From an uncultured Pseudomonadota bacterium (GTDB taxonomy: Bacteria > Pseudomonadota > Alphaproteobacteria > Rs-D84), in assembly GCA_902771695.1 (NCBI GenBank), contig CACXXP010000001.1, positions 45,862 to 109,861 of the forward strand: a stretch of 64,000 bases of DNA, read 5' to 3'. Numbering within the stretch: the first letter of the stretch is position 1; each line of letters opens with the position of its first letter. A program made the translations under genes and the position numbers. This document shows positions 2,888-61,653 of the stretch, in pieces. The notes beneath the pieces are model-generated. The model made no database searches. It saw only the letters and a program-made list of their open reading frames with translations, and was not told where the DNA came from.

Positions 2888-2962
2888 GGCGGCGTAGCTC
2901 AGTGGTAGAGCAGAGGAATCATAATCCTTTGGTCAGGGGTCCGAATCCCTTCGCCGCTACCA
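2888..2962 (+). tRNA. tRNA with anticodon CAU: elongator Met or lysidine-modified Ile2 (not an initiator).
   Basis: A cloverleaf can be drawn by hand: acceptor GGCGGCG/CGCCGCU (G1·U72), D arm GCUC-AGUGGUA-GAGC, anticodon arm GAGGA-AUCAUAA-UCCUU (U33, C34A35U36, A37), T arm AGGGG-UCCGAAU-CCCUU, and an encoded CCA. The anticodon stem lacks the three G-C pairs of initiator tRNA. The variable loop UGGUC resembles tRNA-Ile2. Confidence 0.85.
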
Positions 2963-3011
2963 AAAATTCAACCCCGATTTATTCGGGGTTTAATTTTTTG
3001 TATAGTCGCGA
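2944..3011 (+). repeat. Direct repeat copy 1 (68 bp): the last 19 nt of the tRNA(CAU), the terminator hairpin and 12 nt more.
   Basis: Identical to 3120..3187 by direct reading. Confidence 0.8.
2970..2999 (+). terminator. Rho-independent terminator downstream of the tRNA(CAU).
   Basis: Hairpin AACCCCGATTTATTCGGGGTT followed by a T-run. Confidence 0.6.
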
Positions 3012-3119
3012 GTGGATGAGGCCCCCAGGGGCCGACACGATAGTTGACGAGAACGAGAGAAACGAAGTTCGAGTCTTACGAGTGGAAAGGGTTCCCGTTG
3101 CAAAGCAATGGGAATGTGC

Positions 3120-3187
3120 AATCCCTTCGCCGCTACCAAAAATTCAACCCCGATTTATTCGGGGTTTAATTTTTTGTATAGTCGCGA
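3120..3187 (+). repeat. Direct repeat copy 2 (68 bp): a partial tRNA 3' end plus terminator, 176 bp downstream of copy 1.
   Basis: AATCCCTTCGCCGCTACCAAAAATTCAACCCCGATTTATTCGGGGTTTAATTTTTTGTATAGTCGCGA is present twice. The 108 bp between the copies (3012-3119) is unique, GC-richer and contains the hairpin GAGGCCCCCAGGGGCC. Confidence 0.8.
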
Positions 3188-3289: not shown

Positions 3290-4162
3290 ATGGTTATGGC
3301 AACAGAACAAGAATATTTAGATATTATCAAAGAAACTTTTCCAGAATTAGATATTAAAGATTTTTCTGTTTTGGGTAAGGGTAATTTAGCCACAACTTGT
3401 TTAGTTAATAAAAACATTGTTTTCAAAATTACAGGTACAAGTGAAAAAGCCCTTAAAGATACAGAACACGAAATATATCTTTTGAAACTGATAAACCATA
3501 ATTTGTCATTTAATATCCCTAAAATTCTTTATGACGGAAAAATAAAAAATGGTGGTTGGGTGTTCGGTGAAAATTTGTTGCCAGGGATTACTTATTCCAA
3601 AGAATTACATAACAGTTTTGATAAAGATACCCAGATAGATATTTTACGACAAATTGGCAAAATTATGCACGAATTACATTCTGTCAAAGTCAATGATGAT
3701 AACAAATTGTTATTCGTGGGTGATTATAAACAGAATATTGCTATGTTTAACGAATACTTTTCTGACAAAGTTAAACAATGTTTCTGTCCATCGGATATTG
3801 AAAGAATAAATGCTGTTCGTGAAAGATATGAATATCTTTCCACACATTATCCTGTTGAATTGGTTTTGGTGCACGCTGATATGCATTTTGGTAATTTTAT
3901 GTTTGATACAGACCACAAAAAGATTACCGGTTTAATAGATTTTGGTGCAGCACATTTTTCAGAACCAGCACGAGATATGCATTATTACTATGGCGAAGAT
4001 ATAAAACATATTTTAGAAGGTTATGGCGAAACCCAAGATACTTATTTACCAGAACGTCAAAAATTTCATTCTGTCACGAATTTTCTGGAAAATATAGGCG
4101 GATATATACAAGAAAATCTATACCCAGATAAAGAAATACAAAAACTGTTGAGCTTTTTATAG
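3290..4162 (+). CDS. Aminoglycoside/choline-kinase-family phosphotransferase (APH-like protein-kinase fold).
   Basis: 290 aa. Brenner motif HADMHFGNFMF (HxDxxxxN), a DFG-equivalent IDFGAAHF, and an N-terminal Gly-rich/Lys segment (VLGKGNLATT…VFKI). The gene is AT-rich compared with its neighbours. Confidence 0.7.
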   Translation: MVMATEQEYLDIIKETFPELDIKDFSVLGKGNLATTCLVNKNIVFKITGTSEKALKDTEHEIYLLKLINHNLSFNIPKILYDGKIKNGGWVFGENLLPGITYSKELHNSFDKDTQIDILRQIGKIMHELHSVKVNDDNKLLFVGDYKQNIAMFNEYFSDKVKQCFCPSDIERINAVRERYEYLSTHYPVELVLVHADMHFGNFMFDTDHKKITGLIDFGAAHFSEPARDMHYYYGEDIKHILEGYGETQDTYLPERQKFHSVTNFLENIGGYIQENLYPDKEIQKLLSFL

Positions 4163-6042: not shown

Positions 6043-6585
6043 TCAATTGATTGTATTTACCCAGACCCTATGTTCGCCATGTCCATCAACAAAGCTGTCG
6101 GATATTTGTTCGCCACCGTACATTTTCATCAGACCCAATATTGCACGATATGATGCATTATTATTTACATCACATGTCATCAGTACACGTTTTAACCCCA
6201 ATTTTGCTGCCTGGGCCAAACAAAGTTTTATACCAATAAAGCCCGAATATTCACCCCGGTGTTTTGGTGCAATATTTGCGGCAATGTGCCCGCCCCATTG
6301 TTCCAATTTTGGGGTTAAACGGTGGCGTATACTGAAAGAACCAATAAATTCGTTGTCATCTAATAACCAATATCGGCTTTCTGGGACATATCCATCGGGC
6401 AGTTTTTCTTCATGTTCGTAATCGGCCAATTTTTGCAAATATTCGTCCGCTTTGTTATCTTGGATGGCCTGAATCAATGGATCTATGCCACCACGACCAA
6501 AGTGGTTATCATCGGATATATAATCATCCATGACCTGCACAAATGCCGGTAAATATTTTTTTGATGGTTTGACTAATCTTAACAT
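6043..6585 (-). CDS. GNAT-family N-acetyltransferase.
   Basis: 180 aa. The motif A-like segment GFIGIKLCLAQAAKLGLKRVLMTCDVNNNASYRAI fits the acetyl-CoA-binding core of GNATs. Confidence 0.55.
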   Translation of the reverse strand: MLRLVKPSKKYLPAFVQVMDDYISDDNHFGRGGIDPLIQAIQDNKADEYLQKLADYEHEEKLPDGYVPESRYWLLDDNEFIGSFSIRHRLTPKLEQWGGHIAANIAPKHRGEYSGFIGIKLCLAQAAKLGLKRVLMTCDVNNNASYRAILGLMKMYGGEQISDSFVDGHGEHRVWVNTIN

Positions 6586-8082: not shown

Positions 8083-8628
8083 ATGATAAAAGTATACCCA
8101 TCTGAAGTAATCGGTAAAGATATCAAATTGGTTAAATTGGCGCCAACGATTGAAAATTTAAGGGTTGTTTTTGATATTATTGTTGCCAATCGTGAAGAAT
8201 TTAGACCATGGTTGGAATGGACTGATTCTGTGCAAAAACCAGAAGATGAGTTGCCTCTTTTAGAAGGGGATAAAGATTCTGCGGAATGGTTTATTAAATG
8301 GAATAATACTATTGTTGGCAGAATAGGGTTTGTTAAATTATCCGAAAAAAATAATTTAGGCGAAGTAGGTTATTACCTGGATAAAAATGCCGGTGGACGT
8401 GGTATAATGACAGCGGCATTTGAGTTGCTTGAAAAGAACGCATTTGAAAATTGGGGATTCAACAGAATCGAAGTAAAAATAGACCCTGATAATAAAAAAT
8501 CTTTGGGTGTGGTAAAGCGTCTGAATTATACCCAAGAGGGTGTTTTACGCCAAGATCATTTCATAAATGGTGTATACCGTGATACACTGTTGTTTTCCAA
8601 ATTGAAATCGGAATATAAATCAAAATAA
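8083..8628 (+). CDS. GNAT-family N-acetyltransferase (RimJ/RimL-like).
   Basis: 181 aa. Core GRIGFVKL…GEVGYYLDKNAGGRGIMTAAFELL…NRIEVKIDPDNKKSLGVVKRLNYTQEG. The C-terminal …FSKLKSEYK is shared with the GNAT at 61087..61653. Confidence 0.7.
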   Translation: MIKVYPSEVIGKDIKLVKLAPTIENLRVVFDIIVANREEFRPWLEWTDSVQKPEDELPLLEGDKDSAEWFIKWNNTIVGRIGFVKLSEKNNLGEVGYYLDKNAGGRGIMTAAFELLEKNAFENWGFNRIEVKIDPDNKKSLGVVKRLNYTQEGVLRQDHFINGVYRDTLLFSKLKSEYKSK

Positions 8629-25747: not shown

Positions 25748-26212
25748 ATGTCCAAAGAGATAAAATTCTGTAAACCGGTTGGGAAATATTATTTTTTAAG
25801 CCCATTGTCAGAATTTCCAATAAAGATGTCTGTTGATGGGGTGGAATATGTTTTCCCAACCGTTGAACATTATTACCAAGCAATGAAATTTTACGCCACT
25901 GATTCGCGTTTTGCGGTTATTTTGGCGTTGAAAAATCCTGATGATGCGCGGTTGTTAACCAAAACACCTGAATACAAGGTAAACCGCCGTATTGGGTTTG
26001 ATGATATGAAATTTTCAATTATGGAAAACGCATTACGTGCAAAGTTTGCTCAGAATACAGATGCGGCCGATTTATTGTTATCAACAGGCGATGCAATATT
26101 ATCAAAATCGTGTGATGTTTGTTATCGTTGCGGTTTTGGGCGCGGCGGAAATAACCGTATGGGGCGAATGCTGATGCAAATTCGTGATGAGCTAAAGGCA
26201 AGTAAAAACTAA
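25748..26212 (+). CDS. NADAR (YbiA-like, DUF1768) N-glycosidase-family protein.
   Basis: 154 aa. Family-typical motifs FxxPLSEFP…VEHYYQAMKF…LLSTGDAIL…NRMGRMLMQIRDEL. Confidence 0.7.
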   Translation: MSKEIKFCKPVGKYYFLSPLSEFPIKMSVDGVEYVFPTVEHYYQAMKFYATDSRFAVILALKNPDDARLLTKTPEYKVNRRIGFDDMKFSIMENALRAKFAQNTDAADLLLSTGDAILSKSCDVCYRCGFGRGGNNRMGRMLMQIRDELKASKN

Positions 26213-26811
26213 TCTTGTTGTTCCGGCTTTTTATATTCGCATGCCAATTTTGAATACAACAAGTGATCCATGTATGTACCATCAGGCATACGATTTGCTT
26301 GGCGGTCTGTGCCATCAAGATGATACCCACTGGATTCAATAGATTTTATTGATTCTTGATTCCCGGCCATTGTTTGACGACATACACGATTAACTTGTAA
26401 TCTGTTAAATGCTAAATCTTCTAATTTATTGTGAACTTCGCGGTTAAATCCATGCCCCCATGCAGATTTTATAAACCATACACTTGCACACTGTAATGTT
26501 TTAGATTCTGGCCAGTAATGCACACGCATGTATCCGATAAAATTGTTGTCATGGAAAATATAATATACACATCCGTTTTTGTATTCTGAATCAAGTTTCA
26601 TACGTTCCTGAGTTTCTTCAAGAGATTGTGGCAAGTGTGACTTGCGTGATACCGAAAACCACATGTATTTAAAATCTTCTGGGTTTTCGTTTTTCAGAAC
26701 ATTCCATACAATTTGTGCATTTTCGGCATTTGGTTCCAACATGCGCAATTCCAATCGTTCGGTTTGTAGGTTCCGTCTAAACAATTCCAAGAATTTTTCC
26801 ATGAACGTCAT
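26209..26811 (-). CDS. GNAT-family N-acetyltransferase (RimL-like).
   Basis: 200 aa. IGYMRVHYW…CASVWFIKSAWGHGFNREVHNKLEDLAFNRLQVNRV… is the GNAT core. Convergent with the NADAR gene, with a 4-nt overlap. Confidence 0.65.
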   Translation of the reverse strand: MTFMEKFLELFRRNLQTERLELRMLEPNAENAQIVWNVLKNENPEDFKYMWFSVSRKSHLPQSLEETQERMKLDSEYKNGCVYYIFHDNNFIGYMRVHYWPESKTLQCASVWFIKSAWGHGFNREVHNKLEDLAFNRLQVNRVCRQTMAGNQESIKSIESSGYHLDGTDRQANRMPDGTYMDHLLYSKLACEYKKPEQQD

Positions 26812-30014: not shown

Positions 30015-30731
30015 TTATTTAGATTTTTGTTTTTCACATAAATCCAGATATTCGCGCAATATGGCGGTCATCACCGAACGATAGTCCTTTTCATATGTAA
30101 ATAATTTGCAAAAATCGTTAAATCCCGCTTCTTCCCAATCTATGATGGCAACGACGTCAAATGTTTTTGGGTCCATTATAAAATTATATTTTACATCATT
30201 TTGGCACCATCCGTGCAAGATGGATGATTTTTCAGTCGCCGTGGTTTTTAAATCGCGAATTTCTTTTGGGTCGCTGGTACCGATGATGTATAAAAACTTT
30301 GCCAATTGTTTTGCAATTTTGGATTCTATTTCTTGTGGGACTTTTTTCGGTGGAAACTGTTCAAGATTTATTCCGGCAATATATGGATATTTGCGAACCG
30401 CAATACCATCAAAGTCCAATATTTCCATATCTGGAATTGCAATAGGGGAAATTTGGCGGAATGCATCGGTAATTCGTTTTTCACGCATGGCCTTGTCATA
30501 TCCATTGCCATGGCCTGGGAATTTGAATATATATTTATTATCTGCATTTATAACCAAATTACGGGAACCATGACCGACAATCTTTTTAATATTCTTGAAT
30601 TTTCCCAATGAATTAACAAATTTAATGCATTTATTAACATAGGTGCGATTGTCCAATAAAAAGCGAACCCGATTGCGTGTGGTGCGGTTTGGAATAAACC
30701 GACAAAATAATTTGATAAAAAATTTTCCCAT
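30015..30731 (-). CDS. APH/ChoK-like kinase-fold protein.
   Basis: Gly-rich loop and Lys (GHGSRNLVINADNKYIFKFP), catalytic ILHGWCQNDVKYNFIMD (HxxxxND), and IDWEEAGFND (DFG-equivalent). Convergent with the previous gene. Confidence 0.55.
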   Translation of the reverse strand: MGKFFIKLFCRFIPNRTTRNRVRFLLDNRTYVNKCIKFVNSLGKFKNIKKIVGHGSRNLVINADNKYIFKFPGHGNGYDKAMREKRITDAFRQISPIAIPDMEILDFDGIAVRKYPYIAGINLEQFPPKKVPQEIESKIAKQLAKFLYIIGTSDPKEIRDLKTTATEKSSILHGWCQNDVKYNFIMDPKTFDVVAIIDWEEAGFNDFCKLFTYEKDYRSVMTAILREYLDLCEKQKSK

Positions 30732-30906
30732 ATTTAATCCTTTTTGGAACATGGTCGGTACAAGACAACTGTCCTAGGGCTATGGTCATAATAAATTATT
30801 TATTGTTTAGAATCAAGTAGGGGAATTCAGGTTTACCGCCAGTTATGTATTTCTTGGCTGTAATATAATACCTGTTTTTGTTGCTGTTGCGCATATTCTA
30901 TTCAAT

Positions 30907-31272: not shown

Positions 31273-31500
31273 ATGACGCATCAAGATATATGGCAAGCAA
31301 TAGATAAATTCGCGTTTCAGCACAACATGTCTTGTTCCGGGTTGGCAAGATTTTCTGGTTTGGATGCGACAACATTTAACAAGAGTAAACGTTGGTCAAA
31401 GTATGGTCAACCAAGATGGCCTTCGACAAACAGTATCGCAAAAATATTAAATTCTACGGGGAAAAAGTTGGAAGATTTTGTAAAATGTATCTGCGACTAA
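31273..31500 (+). CDS. XRE-family (Cro/CI-type) helix-turn-helix transcriptional regulator.
   Basis: 75 aa. HTH segment NMSCSGLARFSGLDATTFNK. Confidence 0.6.
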   Translation: MTHQDIWQAIDKFAFQHNMSCSGLARFSGLDATTFNKSKRWSKYGQPRWPSTNSIAKILNSTGKKLEDFVKCICD

Positions 31501-31543
31501 ATATTTTTGTTTACAAAAAGGTTTGGCTGTATAATATAGAAAT

Positions 31544-32446
31544 ATGTCAACACTGAAGTCAAAGATAATTTTATTAAAAGAATTGCTGGCGTTAAAGGAG
31601 GTTGTTGATAAGGGTAGTATTCAAGTCGCCGCCGGTGAAAACGGCATCAAGAATTCTAATTTGTCCCAATTGGTCAAAAATTTAGAAGACAGATTTAATA
31701 CTAAACTTATCAACCGCGGTTTTGATGGCAGCCAACCAACAAATTCTGCCCAGCTTATATACAATGATATCTGTGCCATAGAAGAATTGCTTAACAAGAT
31801 TTCAGAAAATTTTGTAGATATGGATTCTTTATCTGGTTCTATGTCTGTGTGGACCGAAGAAGGTTTATTTGGCAGTTTCATATTGAAAGATTTGTCAGAA
31901 TTCTATGCTAAATATCCTAAAATTCGTTTGGAATTATTTATGAGAAAAGAACCAGATATCAACACGATGGATATCTTGATTATTAAACCAAAATTACATC
32001 CAAATATTCATGGTACAGTATTGTTCAAATTTAAAACTCATTTAAAGTTTTATACCAGCAAAAAATATCTGGCAGAACATGGTGTACCACAAAATATAAA
32101 TGATTTATTGGAAAATCATAATTTATGCATGGTTTATCGGTATATGAATCTGCCGGAATGTCAAAGTATTATAAAGCGTGCAAAACATTTAAACACTACA
32201 TCTGATTCATTGGCATTGATATATCGTTTGGTTAATGATGGTGATGGTATCACGGTATTTCCATCATGGTTTGAAGAAAGCAGTAAAAATCTTGTTTGTA
32301 TCAAGGACTTTGATTTTGAATATGAAATGGAAACACAATGCATGTGCAGAACAGAGATTGCAGAATCACCAAAAGTTCGTGCATTTGTTAATTTCTTTAT
32401 AGATTTCTGTACTGGTCACAATGTCCCTATTGACATATATTACTAA
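31544..32446 (+). CDS. LysR-family transcriptional regulator.
   Basis: 300 aa. N-terminal wHTH (LLALKEVVDKGSIQVAAGENGIKNSNLSQLVKNLEDRFNTKLINR) plus a substrate-binding-like C-terminal region. Confidence 0.65.
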   Translation: MSTLKSKIILLKELLALKEVVDKGSIQVAAGENGIKNSNLSQLVKNLEDRFNTKLINRGFDGSQPTNSAQLIYNDICAIEELLNKISENFVDMDSLSGSMSVWTEEGLFGSFILKDLSEFYAKYPKIRLELFMRKEPDINTMDILIIKPKLHPNIHGTVLFKFKTHLKFYTSKKYLAEHGVPQNINDLLENHNLCMVYRYMNLPECQSIIKRAKHLNTTSDSLALIYRLVNDGDGITVFPSWFEESSKNLVCIKDFDFEYEMETQCMCRTEIAESPKVRAFVNFFIDFCTGHNVPIDIYY

Positions 32447-32543
32447 TTATTTCAGTTTTTTTGTTTCATTGTGTTAAAAATGCCCCAGTGGGCGATTTGT
32501 TAACAGTGGTTGTGGGGTGCTTGCAAAATGCGGATTGAAATCG

Positions 32544-33089
32544 TTATTCAAATTGGTCTAGTTCTTTAATAAAAACATCACAATTTATAAACCAAGCATA
32601 ATGTTCAGAAAAGTTATCAAATGTTATAACATCAATATCTTTGTGGTATTTCTTTATCCATTTATATACGGTTTTAAAATCAATATATAAAAAAGTTGTT
32701 GATATATCATGTGTTTCACGAATAGACGAAAAGATGCTAAAAAATCTAGTTTTATTACCGATTTTAATTTGTGGCACAATATTCACATTTTCTAGATTTA
32801 GATAATTATTATTGCGACAATGCAACAATTTCATAATACTTTTATCTTTTGTGTCAGAAATATCAATAGGTATAAGTATTTTTGATTGTGACAATATAGT
32901 AAAAAAACGCGATAAAGTTTCATTATTTTTTAATGTTATGACCTCAGCCAATGCACTGGTTAAAGTTCCGCTAAAATAATCAGTATCGTTTTCTTGGTGA
33001 ATAATGCTGTAATCAAAATTATACTCAAAATCTTCAAAATAGTTTTCGTCCAGTACATATTCTGACAAAGATGTTTTCATGTTTGACAT
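32544..33089 (-). CDS. Hypothetical acidic protein (181 aa), downstream gene of the inverted-repeat-bounded pair.
   Basis: No motifs recognised. Very AT-rich codon usage. Its start codon lies 1 nt after the upstream gene's stop. Confidence 0.45.
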   Translation of the reverse strand: MSNMKTSLSEYVLDENYFEDFEYNFDYSIIHQENDTDYFSGTLTSALAEVITLKNNETLSRFFTILSQSKILIPIDISDTKDKSIMKLLHCRNNNYLNLENVNIVPQIKIGNKTRFFSIFSSIRETHDISTTFLYIDFKTVYKWIKKYHKDIDVITFDNFSEHYAWFINCDVFIKELDQFE

Positions 33090-33090
33090 A

Positions 33091-33633
33091 TTATTTTCTT
33101 GTTTTATGCAACCAATCGTCTAAATCTTTTAATTTCAATGATTGCCCCAAACCGTTTCTGCTTTTACAAAATTGCACCGGTTTTAACATGGCCAACTGTT
33201 TATTGGTATCTTTATCATTTAACCAAAAACCATAATAATATCCAAATACAGGAACACCGTTTTTTATGTATTTTAATAATAATTCCTTGTTTCTTGATAA
33301 AGATTTTTGTGCAAAAGTATCCCACTTCCAATGTTTACTATCGTTTGAACGCTTGGTATGATATGGATAATATTCCAACGCAAGTATATCTTTGTCTTTT
33401 ATCCCGTATTTATCAGTTTTATTTAAAACTTTATCCCACCATTCACAATATTCACGATATATATGCAAATCCATGCCAGACGATTTGTAAAAACCATCTT
33501 TATCCATAGGATATTCGGCTAACCTTTTGTAATATTTTGGGTCGCCACCAGGATTACATAACAAAATAATCAGTTTTGGTGATTTTTCATTGCCAATTCG
33601 AGATACAGGAAAAATTTTTTCTGTTTCTATCAT
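33091..33633 (-). CDS. Hypothetical protein (180 aa), upstream gene of the inverted-repeat-bounded pair.
   Basis: Rich in Tyr/Trp/Lys. No known catalytic motif recognised. Confidence 0.45.
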   Translation of the reverse strand: MIETEKIFPVSRIGNEKSPKLIILLCNPGGDPKYYKRLAEYPMDKDGFYKSSGMDLHIYREYCEWWDKVLNKTDKYGIKDKDILALEYYPYHTKRSNDSKHWKWDTFAQKSLSRNKELLLKYIKNGVPVFGYYYGFWLNDKDTNKQLAMLKPVQFCKSRNGLGQSLKLKDLDDWLHKTRK

Positions 33634-34004
33634 AATTTCTCCCTTAACAACTATATATTAATCATATTTTATAATTTATTCAACGCTATTTTGCCAGCAC
33701 CCCACAACCACTTTGAACAGATATGCTGGTTAGAGCGATTTTATGTTGGTTTTGTAATATTATGTTTTGTTCGAGTGTTATAAGCGGTTCGAAAGTGTGG
33801 ATAACGACATAATTTTTCTAAAAATTACTTTCGAACTTGGCGGAAATTTATTTTTTCACTCTCTGGAATGCGCACGAGACCTTGATAAACAATAACCAAC
33901 CGCAGGGCAAAAACTCTATTAAAAATATCCGTTTTTGTGCGGCCGCGTTTGTTCATCTGCGTATTCGCCATGCGCTTCGCTCTGGCGGATCCGTGCGCCC
34001 AGGA

Positions 34005-34038
34005 ATAAATAAAAACACCCAAAGGGGTGTTTTTGTTT
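34005..34038 (-). terminator. Rho-independent terminator downstream of tRNA-Gln. It is also usable from the + strand.
   Basis: ACACCCAAAGGGGTGT hairpin flanked by A-run and T-run. Confidence 0.6.
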
Positions 34039-34043
34039 ATTCT

Positions 34044-34116
34044 GGTTGGGGCGCACGGATTCGAACCATGATAAAGAGAACCAAAATCTCTTGTCCTACC
34101 ATTAGACGACACCCCA
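34044..34116 (-). tRNA. tRNA-Gln (anticodon UUG).
   Basis: Reverse complement folds as: acceptor UGGGGUG/CGCCCCA (U1-A72, as in E. coli tRNA-Gln), U8, D arm GUCU-AAUGGUA-GGAC, anticodon arm AGAGA-UUUUGGU-UCUCU (U33, U34U35G36), T arm CAUGG-UUCGAAU-CCGUG, discriminator A, and an encoded CCA. Confidence 0.8.
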
Positions 34117-41626: not shown

Positions 41627-42526
41627 CTATTTATCAAAATCTAATTCTTTTATTTTCTCGGCACGTGGGGCAATTTTATTTATAGATGTTTGCAATTGTT
41701 CTATGTCTGATTGCGCCATATTGAAATGTTGTGATACTTTGCCGGCCCGTTCTGCCAAACGCCCCAGGTCTGTTATCAACATATCTAATTCACGCTTTAT
41801 TTGACCTGCAACGCGTTTTATTTTTATGTCGGAAAGCACCGCACGAATAGTGTTCAATGTTGCCCATAATGTTGATGGTGAAACGATGAATACTTTTTTG
41901 CGTGCGGCATATTCTACCGCACCGGGAAATTCACGATGTAATGTTTCAAATATAGATTCCGATGCGATGAACATCATTGCACTTTCGGCTGTTTTGCCGG
42001 GGATAATATATTTTTCTGCGATGGCATCTATGTGTTTACGAACATCTAATTCAAATTGTTTTCGGTATAGTTCTGGATTATCCGCCTTGGTCATACGCGA
42101 AAAAGATTCCAATGGAAATTTACTGTCTATAATCATATCGCCAGGCGGATATGGCAAACGGATTACACAATCGGGTCGTACACCTGTTTCCATAACGTAT
42201 TGAAATGCGTATGTTTCCGGCGGCATAATATCCGCCACCAAATCTTCCAATTGACGTTCGCCGAATGTCCCGCGTGCCTGTTTGTTTCCCATAAGGATAT
42301 CTTTGAAATTTGCAATATCGGCACTTATATTTTTCAATTCTGTTGCGTTTTGTGCCAAAACCCCTAATCGTTCAGCAAGTCGTTCACGCAGGCGGCTGTT
42401 ATCTTCGCGCAGGGCCGACATATCAACCCCAGTTGGGCGCATCAATAACGCCCCCAACATTATGATTATAACCGCACACATCACAATTAAAATATAAGTT
42501 GTCATTTGGATTTCCTTTGCTATCAT
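41627..42526 (-). CDS. rmuC: DNA recombination protein RmuC.
   Basis: N-terminal TM then coiled coil. GTFGERQLE…PDCVIRLP…MMFIASESIF…VFIVSPSTLWATLNTI parallels the E. coli RmuC segments GNWGEVVL…PDVIVRLP…VLMFIPVEPAF…IMLVSPTTLLVALRTI. Confidence 0.75.
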   Translation of the reverse strand: MIAKEIQMTTYILIVMCAVIIIMLGALLMRPTGVDMSALREDNSRLRERLAERLGVLAQNATELKNISADIANFKDILMGNKQARGTFGERQLEDLVADIMPPETYAFQYVMETGVRPDCVIRLPYPPGDMIIDSKFPLESFSRMTKADNPELYRKQFELDVRKHIDAIAEKYIIPGKTAESAMMFIASESIFETLHREFPGAVEYAARKKVFIVSPSTLWATLNTIRAVLSDIKIKRVAGQIKRELDMLITDLGRLAERAGKVSQHFNMAQSDIEQLQTSINKIAPRAEKIKELDFDK

Positions 42527-61064: not shown

Positions 61065-61097
61065 AACCGCCCGATTGGGCGGTTTTCTATTTTTTAT
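61065..61097. terminator. Bidirectional rho-independent terminator.
   Basis: AACCGCCCGATTGGGCGGTT followed by TTCTATTTTTT. Confidence 0.6.
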
Positions 61098-61653
61098 ATT
61101 CCGATTTTAATTTTCCAAACATGGCGGTACTGTGTACTGAACCATCTGGCCATAATTTTCGTTCGCGTTGAATTCCTTCTAGGATATAGCCATTTTTTTC
61201 GGCGTGGCGACGCGATGCAATGTTGTCATTATCGCACCATATATTTATTTTGCGCAGGTTGAAAGTTTCAAAAGCCAGTTGTTCTATTACAGGAATTAAT
61301 CTATCTATTATGCCTTTGCCACGTGCAGACTTTTTTAACCAATAGCCGATTTCGGCGGTTTGATTAGTTGTGTCTATGCCAGATAAACCAATTTCCCCCA
61401 GTAATTCATCGTTTTTGAAAATACCGTACATCGCAAATTGCCAACGTGTATCGTTAGGTTGTGATTTGTTTTGGTAATATTTAAGCACATCTTCGACAGA
61501 TTTCCACATGCCACCATTAAACCAGTGTTTGAAAGTGTCGGCATCTTCTATAAAAATATCATAGATTTCTTCGGCGAAATCCTTGGTTGCAGGTATCTGA
61601 CGTAATACGAAATCCTCTACTATGATTTTTTCTGGTTTGATAAAATCGGACAT
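61087..61653 (-). CDS. GNAT-family N-acetyltransferase (RimJ/RimL-like).
   Basis: 188 aa. GNAT core (…IGLSGIDTTNQTAEIGYWLKKSARGKGIIDRLIPVIEQLAFETFNLRKINIWCDNDNIASRRHAEKNGY…). C-terminal …FGKLKSEYKK is paralogous to the GNAT at 8083. Confidence 0.7.
   Translation of the reverse strand: MSDFIKPEKIIVEDFVLRQIPATKDFAEEIYDIFIEDADTFKHWFNGGMWKSVEDVLKYYQNKSQPNDTRWQFAMYGIFKNDELLGEIGLSGIDTTNQTAEIGYWLKKSARGKGIIDRLIPVIEQLAFETFNLRKINIWCDNDNIASRRHAEKNGYILEGIQRERKLWPDGSVHSTAMFGKLKSEYKK

Follow-up and report, generated by a model that had tools for sequence, protein, structure and literature searches.

The closest described counterparts of the locus analysed here are dif modules, integron cassettes and tRNA-anchored islands. 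In dif modules, inversely oriented sites alternate, a single module cannot excise, an adjacent pair of modules bounded by direct sites can, and the recombinase is encoded in the chromosome (PMC13141974). Partial tRNAs are scattered through the tRNA-anchored islands of streamlined genomes (bioRxiv 10.1101/2020.12.28.424599), and divergent proteins resembling uracil-DNA glycosylase (UDG) on integron cassettes include the antiphage enzyme Brig2 (bioRxiv 10.1101/2025.10.29.685425), while Brig1 is a defence DNA glycosylase (PMC11078745). Here, we report on a 1.2-kb two-gene unit in a 64,000-nt stretch, referred to as the window, from an uncultured alphaproteobacterium of the Rs-D84 lineage (assembly GCA_902771695.1, contig CACXXP010000001.1, positions 45,862 to 109,861). 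Candidatus Enterousia of the order Rs-D84 comprises farm-animal gut bacteria with genomes below 1 Mb (PMC12306168). With a probability of about 60%, we conclude that the unit is one gene cassette in a lineage-specific array that is anchored at the tRNA-Gln gene of Candidatus Enterousia/Rs-D84 and serviced in trans. No published account of the locus was found in the literature on the lineage or on tRNA-linked inverted-repeat cassettes, with incomplete coverage of both.

Results

The unit is delimited by two inverted repeats, here called arms, at 32495-32529 and 33688-33722, which are 35 nt long, complementary at 31 of 35 positions (89%) and 1158 nt apart. The left, ORF2-distal arm lies on the plus strand and has its 22-nt core at 32507-32528 (TGGTTGTGGGGTGCTTGCAAAA); read along the gene strand, this arm has the form of a pseudo tRNA-Gln 3' end (...CACCCCACAACCA) directed away from the cargo. 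The right, tRNA-proximal arm lies on the minus strand with its core at 33689-33710 (TGGTTGTGGGGTGCTGGCAAAA on that strand), and identical arms are present in L003, L012, L014, L029 and further loci (L numbers designate loci on other contigs). The 28-nt arm has no further occurrence in the 64-kb window, and 100 dinucleotide-preserving shuffles yielded no arm match at all; the inverted repeats described in the original prediction are confirmed. The arms enclose two open reading frames (ORFs) on the minus strand, ORF1 (33633-33091, 180 aa) and ORF2 (33089-32544, 181 aa). As had been reported, ORF2 is translationally coupled to ORF1, with 1 nt from the ORF1 stop to the ORF2 start and 14 nt from the ORF2 stop to the left arm. 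The leader of this bicistron (33634-33687, minus strand), as read from the sequence, would supply the promoter, with weak sigma-70-like hexamers, TTGAAT at 33683-33678 and TAATAT at 33660-33655, which are 17 nt apart and match at 8 of 12 positions, and with an AAGGGAG ribosome-binding site. The promoter region had been placed inside the right repeat; instead, these hexamers lie between the right arm and ORF1, and they are not among the promoters listed by a consensus scan of the window. The unit has a GC content of 26-30% compared to 40-43% beyond 34.2 kb, as expected from the original prediction, except that the AT-richness spans the entire 26-34 kb stretch and is not a property of the unit alone. 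In line with that prediction, searches of Pfam, NCBIfam, PHROGs and PADLOC found no domain of a transposase or recombinase (DDE, HUH, serine or tyrosine) in either protein. The target-site duplication proposed as a check is missing; no direct repeat of 2-10 bp is present at the unit ends under any of three end definitions.

The search for further copies, also proposed at the outset, was productive. The 22-nt arm core, with the consensus TGGTTGTGGKGTGYKGGCRAAA, was found in approximately 45 loci from metagenome-assembled genomes (MAGs) of Candidatus Enterousia/Rs-D84 and from rumen and gut metagenomes. A scan of one genome per species gave six loci, all in gut or rumen alphaproteobacterial MAGs and one of these named Candidatus Enterousia, and a metagenome scan with a degenerate arm gave 36 further loci, three of them chance-like (~33 contigs). 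Viral contigs contained neither the arm nor the matching tRNA-Gln 3' end. The arms form a single stretch per MAG, and the first arm is 0.2-0.6 kb from tRNA-Gln wherever the contig extends to it. When the arrays were mapped with mismatches allowed, the arms alternated in orientation, with 25 ARM>..ARM< pairs, 13 ARM<..ARM> spacers and four exceptions. The 25 pairs enclose 0.4-1.9 kb and at least 12 unrelated cargos, among them S-adenosylmethionine (SAM) methyltransferases, a short-chain dehydrogenase (SDR), APH/choline-kinase-like proteins, a sodium:solute symporter, a BspA-type leucine-rich repeat (LRR) protein and several proteins of no known function. Because the arms also bound methyltransferase, SDR, symporter and other cassettes, ORF1 and ORF2 are not needed for the arms. 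One to three cassettes stand in series beside tRNA-Gln in L012, L016, L017, L018, L032 and L041.

The layout of these arrays is highly regular. The distal arm begins 0-26 nt past the stop codon of the cargo, while CGCGAG and a -35-like TTG come after the promoter-proximal arm, the TTG at a distance of 6-8 nt from its end; the TAGCG-TTGAAT in the leader of ORF1 is a remnant of this CGCGAG-TTGnnn motif, which trails the promoter-proximal arms in other cassettes. Wherever the tRNA is visible, the polarity is constant, running from a tRNA-type end through a hairpin, an optional GC-rich module, TTCGAAC boxes with a ~70-nt flank and an inverted arm to the cargo with its own promoter and finally a direct arm. 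In other words, each cassette has the form <-pseudo-3'-end / cargo / pseudo-3'-end->. Neighbouring arms are direct rather than alternating at L041 6002-6867, L015 1006-2479, L021 1039-1553 and L045 276-1352, and the direct-oriented arms of L041 and L043 have identical outer flanks (CATTTTGTTAACTT). Such arms could be the products of recombination between arms or reflect the loss of a degenerate arm.

The evidence for exchange comes from comparisons between loci. The bicistron of the window was found on three metagenome contigs: L001, which is the same locus as the window, and L002 and L003, in which it is 98% identical and has different neighbours. L003 lies beside tRNA-Gln, and its tRNA-side homology runs 76 bp past the arm, to 33798; the other arm is missing there and an autotransporter gene is next. 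L002 has kept the distal arm and has unrelated genes beyond it. At the left arm, homology breaks exactly at the outer edge in the comparison with L002 and inside the arm, after TTTTGCA, in the comparison with L003. Conversely, a single slot holds three different cargos: ORF1 and ORF2 in the window, a 582-aa LRR protein in L013 and a 206-aa methyltransferase in L046 all have tRNA-Gln on one side and the genes for a LysR-type regulator and a 75-aa protein (88-93% aa identity) on the other. L034 and L035 share the F18 cargo at 97% identity, and their flanks outside the arms are only 45-48% identical. In every informative pair, the match extends from the cargo over the adjoining 12-20 nt of the arm and is lost further out in the arm or at its outer border. 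Arms of the same cassette have a mean of 1.44 differences, compared to 2.54 across a spacer and 2.71 between loci (p=0.028 and 0.0007, values that are only indicative because non-independent loci are included). Private variants are present in both arms of one cassette in L012 and L015, and mixed arm pairs with 3-6 differences occur in L013, L016 and L035. These comparisons show the arms, at the level of assembled sequence, as conserved borders between which genomes have either different cargo or cargo in common, and the arms appear to travel with the cargo.

Several observations relate the arms to tRNA-Gln. Compared to the complement of the tRNA-Gln 3' end (TGGTTGGGGCGCACGG...), a mean of 11 of the first 17 positions of the arm are identical (null mean 3.8, P ~5e-4). 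Irrespective of orientation, each arm has an outer flank with homology to the sequence directly after a real tRNA-Gln in some locus; the left arm of the window is followed by CTGTTAACAAATCGCCC..GGGGCA and other arms by hairpins of the AAAATTCAACCGGC.. or ATATTCAAACGCCCC.. type, all of which follow tRNA-Gln elsewhere. We therefore read the arms as conserved, diverged copies of the tRNA-Gln 3' end, with the positional evidence being more telling than the identity. The arms differ from the tRNA in a fixed, shared manner and fall into two conserved types. The direct arms are in series with the tRNA, as are the att copies in tRNA-anchored islands, and each unit has an inverted arm in addition. No consensus RNA structure or covariation was detected in the conserved flank and arm, and the 150 nt that border the arms on the outside show a 13-fold enrichment of TTCGAA boxes; both results are consistent with protein-binding sites in DNA.

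Over the first 17 positions, the commonest arm type has T or G wherever the tRNA complement has C or A, and it shows no transition of a G or T, so that one strand is almost purely G/T. This strand could still pair with the tRNA-Gln 3' end through G.U pairs (mean 15.3 of 17 positions). The bias could stem from directional mutation or from selection.

The cargo of the window cassette is divergent. Two methods assigned to ORF1 an alpha/beta fold of the UDG superfamily, and its invariant motifs are LLxNPG after strand 1 (residues 21-25) and LEYYPYH, of which the former resembles the NPG loop of the MUG/SMUG1 type; in this superfamily, the catalytic loop after strand 1 is of the GQDPY, GxNPG or GEAPG type. 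At the level of sequence, ORF1 is not a member of UDG at threshold (Pfam PF03167, NCBIfam), its family profile gave no hit in the PDB, and neither ORF was assigned to a confident family by PADLOC, PHROGs, Pfam or NCBIfam. A canonical UDG is encoded elsewhere in the window, and ORF1 is additional to it. ORF2, whose family consists of 14 clusters, scores 19.5 bits with SseB_N (PF07179) against a cut-off of 21 bits, and its model (pLDDT 73) is that of a divergent alpha/beta protein that matches TTHA0547 and Tic22 in fold. The fold search suggested with the original prediction thus returned UDG-superfamily and SseB_N/Tic22-like matches, while the transposase or nuclease fold that it was meant to detect was not seen in ORF1.

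The pairing of an ORF1-like with an ORF2-like protein is kept in diverged relatives. In L057, the pair is again between arms beside tRNA-Gln, while in L056 (8001-8961) a distant ORF1 homologue without arms is followed by a 149-aa protein that passes the Pfam threshold for SseB_N (28.4 bits); the L056 pair adjoins Tlde1-domain and phage-lysozyme genes. Outside Rs-D84, in L004-L011 and L056, ORF1 homologues that are 57-71% identical are without arms and paired with other small proteins. In L004 (5325-6540), the homologue overlaps an upstream gene for a 228-aa partner of no family; this upstream partner of the P0003-type ORF1 homologue was considered as a counterpart of ORF2 and found to be unrelated. 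Among viral contigs, only one partial ORF1 relative and no ORF2 relative were found, and the ORF1-ORF2 pair matches no known toxin-antitoxin family and no PADLOC system. Judging from the model and from analogy, ORF1 is probably a divergent UDG-fold enzyme, a DNA glycosylase for a non-canonical base; this assignment, with ORF2 as the partner, draws on the antiphage UDG-like proteins of integron cassettes. ORF2 would be an SseB_N-like partner that binds, controls or neutralises ORF1, and the two could form a module of the phage-defence or toxin-immunity type.

As had been noted at the outset, the unit adjoins tRNA-Gln and a regulator gene. tRNA-Gln (UUG) was identified by ARAGORN at 34043-34116 on the minus strand (Rfam tRNA, 57.7 bits), and it appears both to anchor the array and to have supplied the arm sequence. 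Directly after its 3' end, a palindromic hairpin (34003-34042), found by the terminator scan and the inverted-repeat search, is a predicted bidirectional terminator. This hairpin is shared with a ~150-nt spacer module (33846-34000, plus strand) that is convergent with tRNA-Gln, has termini that could pair (GCGCACG...CGTGCGC) and terminates with part of the tRNA-Gln 3' end copied in inverted orientation (33986-34000, CGGATCCGTGCGCCC). Modules of this type recur in L016, L037, L041, L022, L030, L027, L017 and L055, always adjoining a tRNA-type end, and the module of the window has no Rfam match; Rfam searches over the window region and eight loci returned tRNAs only. Between module and arm, the outer flank of the tRNA-proximal arm (33711-33845, minus strand) is conserved in 24-31 loci and consists of ...CTGTTCAAAG adjoining the arm followed by a ~70-nt conserved segment. 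Its three TTCGA-type boxes (~33769-33778, 33786-33799 and 33827-33840) are presumed accessory sites for protein binding.

On the opposite side, the terminator scan detected a short G+C hairpin, TGCCCCAGTGGGCG, at 32481-32494 just outside the left arm, a terminator-like site common to the cassette and the convergent LysR gene. Together with the bases that follow, this hairpin makes up the flank type CTGTTAACAAATCGCCC..GGGGCA, found directly after the real tRNA-Gln in L018, L029 and L019. The genes for the 75-aa protein and the LysR-type regulator (31273-32446, plus strand; Pfam HTH_1/LysR_substrate in the annotation of L001) are also found at L013 2579-3779, L046 3686-4861, L030 504-1678 and L052 972-2202. 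Because the 88-93% aa identity of this module is observed between loci in which the MarR backbone protein is only ~45% identical, the module, too, is horizontally shared. No arm is present on its far side.

GC-rich spacer modules of 110-190 nt were also observed downstream of tRNA-type ends at L014 4932-5083, L016 1717-1868, L025 875-1026, L035 1029-1180, L046 ~2740-2870 and L050 1268-1419. They comprise several sequence types with a common core, GGTTCGA..AAGTAGATT..CGTTACGG..CCGCAG..GAGGGAATCCGTGCGC, and carry the tRNA-Gln T-stem/acceptor strand, in copy, at their end. Their internal stems vary and keep pairing, with compensatory changes across four types in 6 of 13 predicted pairs, and they have no match in Rfam. 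They might be a tRNA-like RNA of a new kind or an att-arm element. In the spacers, the ~50 nt between the conserved ATTCGAAC box and the arm-adjacent GTTCAATG are of a few discrete, unrelated types (L016 1054-1131 and L032 1000-1077; L034 and L035), which are swapped independently of the cargo and of the sequence further out.

Elsewhere in the window, tRNA-Met (2888-2962) is followed by a hairpin, a GC-rich stretch of ~115 nt, a direct 19/20 copy of its 3' end (3119-3138) and the same hairpin (region 2888-3180). This copy lies 176 bp downstream in a design like that of the tRNA-Gln spacer modules, and an APH-like gene (3290-4162) is next. Dispersed over the window are the canonical UDG gene, four paralogous GNAT acetyltransferase genes and two genes for APH-like kinases (1520-2185, 6043-6585, 8083-8628, 26209-26811, 61087-61653, 3290-4162 and 30015-30752). 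Several of these genes directly adjoin tRNA-Met and tRNA-Thr, an indication that small accessory islets are seeded by other tRNA genes as well. No arm-like copy of the tRNA-Thr end was found. An RmuC-family gene (41627-42526, minus strand; 191.7 bits) is located ~7.5 kb away from the cassette locus, and its synteny is conserved, including in L029 and L054. RmuC has been implicated in restricting inversions at short inverted repeats, and the proximity of its gene to the cassette is probably a coincidence.

Several other candidates were set aside. The ~185-aa array-adjacent protein F7, considered as a small serine recombinase, is a PNP_UDP_1 phosphorylase, and the 576-aa protein F17, considered as a recombinase, is PcfJ-like. 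By eye, the arm was judged to be neither a sigma-54 promoter nor a dif/Xer site on account of its spacing and half-sites; spacers as a MITE (miniature inverted-repeat transposable element) between genes do not fit the unpaired terminal arm on the LysR side and the different cargos within one slot; and a reverse transcriptase is absent for the reading of the TGG-initiated arm as the primer-binding site of a retroelement.

Discussion

Based on the data reported here, we classify the locus among recombination-site-bounded gene cassettes. The proposal in the original prediction that the unit is a cassette moved in trans is upheld by the 98% identical bicistron in other contexts and by the unrelated genes that the arms bracket, while its architecture as an insertion sequence (IS) is rejected; for the cargo, the toxin-immunity or addiction pair named in that prediction may still apply. 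In the proposed mechanism, the arms would be recognised by an enzyme encoded elsewhere, most likely a site-specific recombinase of the tyrosine type acting in the way that XerCD acts on the dif modules of Acinetobacter or IntI on integron cassettes. Such an enzyme could excise and insert a spacer together with the adjacent cargo where direct arms bound the pair, and two crossovers could replace a single cargo. Tentatively, and with more doubt than the cassette reading itself, we suggest a cassette platform of a new kind, integron-like or dif-array-like, in which arms derived from the tRNA-Gln 3' end, TTCGAAC boxes and an enzyme encoded elsewhere would serve to swap promoter-equipped genes, including a UDG-fold/SseB-like module that would act on modified (phage) DNA. 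The enzyme of such a platform could be a dedicated recombinase or a tRNA-end-associated GIY-YIG nuclease.

Several points speak against the trans-serviced cassette and the function suggested for its cargo. No recombinase, integrase, transposase or invertase domain was found in the 40 ORFs of the window or in the recurrent array-adjacent families, and the arm consensus has no dyad symmetry and no half-sites like those of dif, as judged with the general dif consensus, which may not be the chromosomal dif of this lineage. Neither an excised circle nor an empty site nor an inversion isoform was seen in the assemblies. Each cargo family has a single orientation relative to the flank-bearing arm in all loci, although assemblies cannot reveal minority isoforms; the promoter of ORF1-ORF2 adjoins this arm, while F6, F18 and F38 have their 3' ends there instead. 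This constancy weighs against free exchange because identical inverted sites should yield both orientations. Moreover, the spacer segments are mosaic at other short conserved motifs as well as at the arms, a pattern compatible with homologous or break-induced recombination no less than with site-specific recombination, and the arm-pair statistics come from partly non-independent loci. As for the cargo, the UDG-superfamily match of ORF1 is distant (TM ~0.45), its score with the Brig1 model is 17 bits against a cut-off of 230, and ORF2 carries no catalytic or known inhibitory signature.

Among the alternatives, exchange by repair deserves most attention, even if we consider it unlikely. Here, the arms and nearby motifs would be cut by a nuclease or serve as short homology anchors, and incoming DNA would replace the cassettes by break-induced or homologous exchange, comparable to intron-less homing or to the minimal mobile elements of Neisseria. 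The candidate driver is a stand-alone GIY-YIG nuclease of 81 aa (Pfam, 60 bits), encoded at L017 4323-4565, L012 7387-7629, L055 6196-6438, L024 916-1158 and L025 5497-5709, always ~110-130 nt after a tRNA-type 3' end and connected to it by the flank CACTTCGCGTCTGCGACGCTTCGTGTGGCAGGCC. This end belongs to the real tRNA-Gln in L012 and to another tRNA in L025; in L017 and L024 it is an arm and in L055 a hybrid end. The protein is 96% identical across diverged backbones; on the sequence evidence, the gene looks like a mobile, tRNA-end-associated nuclease module. Exchange by repair would also account for the constant orientation of the cargo, for mosaic flanks that break at several short conserved motifs besides the arms and for the lack of a site-specific recombinase, and RuvA, RuvC and RmuC are encoded in the window. 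However, the GIY-YIG gene is present in only ~6 of ~45 loci, the window not being one of them, and its 81-aa product is without a DNA-binding domain. Repair tracts should end at variable distances, yet identity falls inside the arm or at its edge in every informative pair; 22 nt is at the lower limit for RecA-dependent exchange; and inverted arm pairs tight against the ends of ORFs are left unexplained.

The remaining alternatives fare worse. That the arms are inert scars, i.e. decaying attL/attR remnants of successive integrations by elements that target tRNA-Gln, similar to tycheposon islands or cis-mobilisable elements, and now without function, has precedent in the partial tRNAs of such islands (bioRxiv 10.1101/2020.12.28.424599), and it would agree with the direct 3'-end copy 176 bp downstream of tRNA-Met in the window, arms that are partial tRNA-Gln 3' ends, direct copies in series with the tRNA and flanks made of tRNA-downstream sequence. 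We nonetheless regard it as improbable, because the 22-mer is identical or has 1-2 changes across genomes in which MarR is ~45% identical, while the adjacent flank varies, and because its differences from the tRNA are shared and fixed in two conserved types. Half of the arms are inverted, which integration does not produce, the arms keep to within 0-26 nt of stop codons and to a fixed distance from promoter-like motifs, and remnants of an integrase were not seen. More remote still is a non-autonomous IS- or MITE-like unit mobilised by a transposase elsewhere, or a novel transposase family represented by ORF1/ORF2 as the original prediction had considered. The 35-nt terminal inverted repeat around a compact bicistron, its presence in more than one context and the greater similarity of the arms of one cassette would fit a transposon. 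It is largely refuted by the missing target-site duplication and by the confinement of the arms to the tRNA-Gln locus, one stretch per genome in the incomplete genomes covered, with no dispersed copies in the window or in viral contigs. Likewise, the homology with L003, which lacks the other arm, continues 76 bp past the tRNA-side arm, the arms stem from the tRNA 3' end with tRNA-downstream sequences as outer flanks, they also bracket unrelated genes, ORF1 has a UDG fold and the window encodes no transposase. Equally remote is a role at the level of RNA or regulation, with the arms pairing in read-through transcripts as a 22-bp processing stem similar to an RNase III stalk, or looping as silencing operators, and with cargo turnover being incidental. 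Perfect complementarity between both arms of a cassette, including private variants, the potential G.U pairing of the commonest arm type with the tRNA-Gln 3' end and the placement of the promoter-proximal arm 6-8 nt before the -35-like TTG would agree with such a role. Against it, the promoter-like motifs lie between the arms, so that a cassette mRNA would hold one arm only, flank and arm have no consensus structure or covariation, and the mixed pairs of L013, L016 and L035 differ at 3-6 positions; furthermore, a regulatory site cannot explain unrelated genes between identical arms in one slot.

Bacteria with genomes below 1 Mb are usually thought to be poor in gene exchange, while the cassette reading describes one tRNA-anchored slot in which promoter-equipped accessory genes rotate. 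We know of no recombinase family that uses the arm site. If the arms are true recombination sites, they would represent a third natural logic of cassette exchange beside integrons and dif modules and provide a short, defined site of potential use in engineering. The layout is also relevant to the seeding of genomic islands by tRNA 3' ends, with copies of the end having been fixed in diverged form and reused both ways, and the cargo is a candidate two-gene member of the growing class of defence DNA glycosylases.

The dif modules of Acinetobacter (pdif, XerC-XerD) are discrete gene modules, including toxin-antitoxin and resistance genes, that are bounded by inversely oriented short sites. The arrays described here share with them the alternating arms in 25 arm pairs, cargos that recur in different contexts and the lack of a linked recombinase. 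However, the arm is derived from a tRNA 3' end and is not a 28-bp XerC-spacer-XerD site with a 6-bp spacer, the arrays are chromosomal and anchored at one tRNA gene rather than carried on Rep_3 plasmids, and their spacer modules are mostly non-coding and of fixed polarity. Inversion of modules is documented for dif modules, while none was seen here. Similarly, invertons and shufflons differ in that the segment between the repeats is found here in only one orientation per cargo family. With IS and MITE elements, the locus shares terminal inverted repeats of 22-35 nt around a compact unit; it differs from them in having no transposase and no target-site duplication, in being confined to a single locus and in the arms being common to units of unrelated content.

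The resemblance to integrons lies in a single chromosomal platform with compact, mostly single-gene cassettes of diverse function, in a conserved element that begins a few nt from the stop codon and in a cargo that includes divergent UDG-like proteins. By contrast, no intI is present beside the platform in the window or in any locus examined, the cassettes appear to carry their own promoter and the anchor is a tRNA 3' end rather than attI. Nor does the arm (TGGTTGTGGKGTGYKGGCRAAA) resemble attC, an imperfectly palindromic folded site of 60-140 nt with R''/L''-L'/R' boxes and GTTRRRY; the adjacent GTTCAATG and GTTAAC do not fit, and paired arms are 0.17-2 kb apart. Tycheposons, cis-mobilisable elements and other tRNA-anchored islands have in common with the locus a hypervariable island beside a tRNA in a streamlined genome and partial 3'-end copies in series, and here, too, new units were apparently added at the tRNA-type end and older ones pushed outward. 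Unlike these islands, the arrays have no integrase, replication or packaging genes and consist of single-gene units of 0.4-2 kb, their partial copies are a conserved, diverged 22-mer (~11 of 17 positions matching the tRNA) and every unit also has an inverted copy. Finally, ORF1 shares with the defence glycosylases of the UDG superfamily (Brig1, Brig2 and integron-borne proteins) the UDG fold, a mobile cassette in an AT-rich accessory region and very low sequence identity; whereas those enzymes are described as acting alone, ORF1 is coupled to an SseB_N-like partner.

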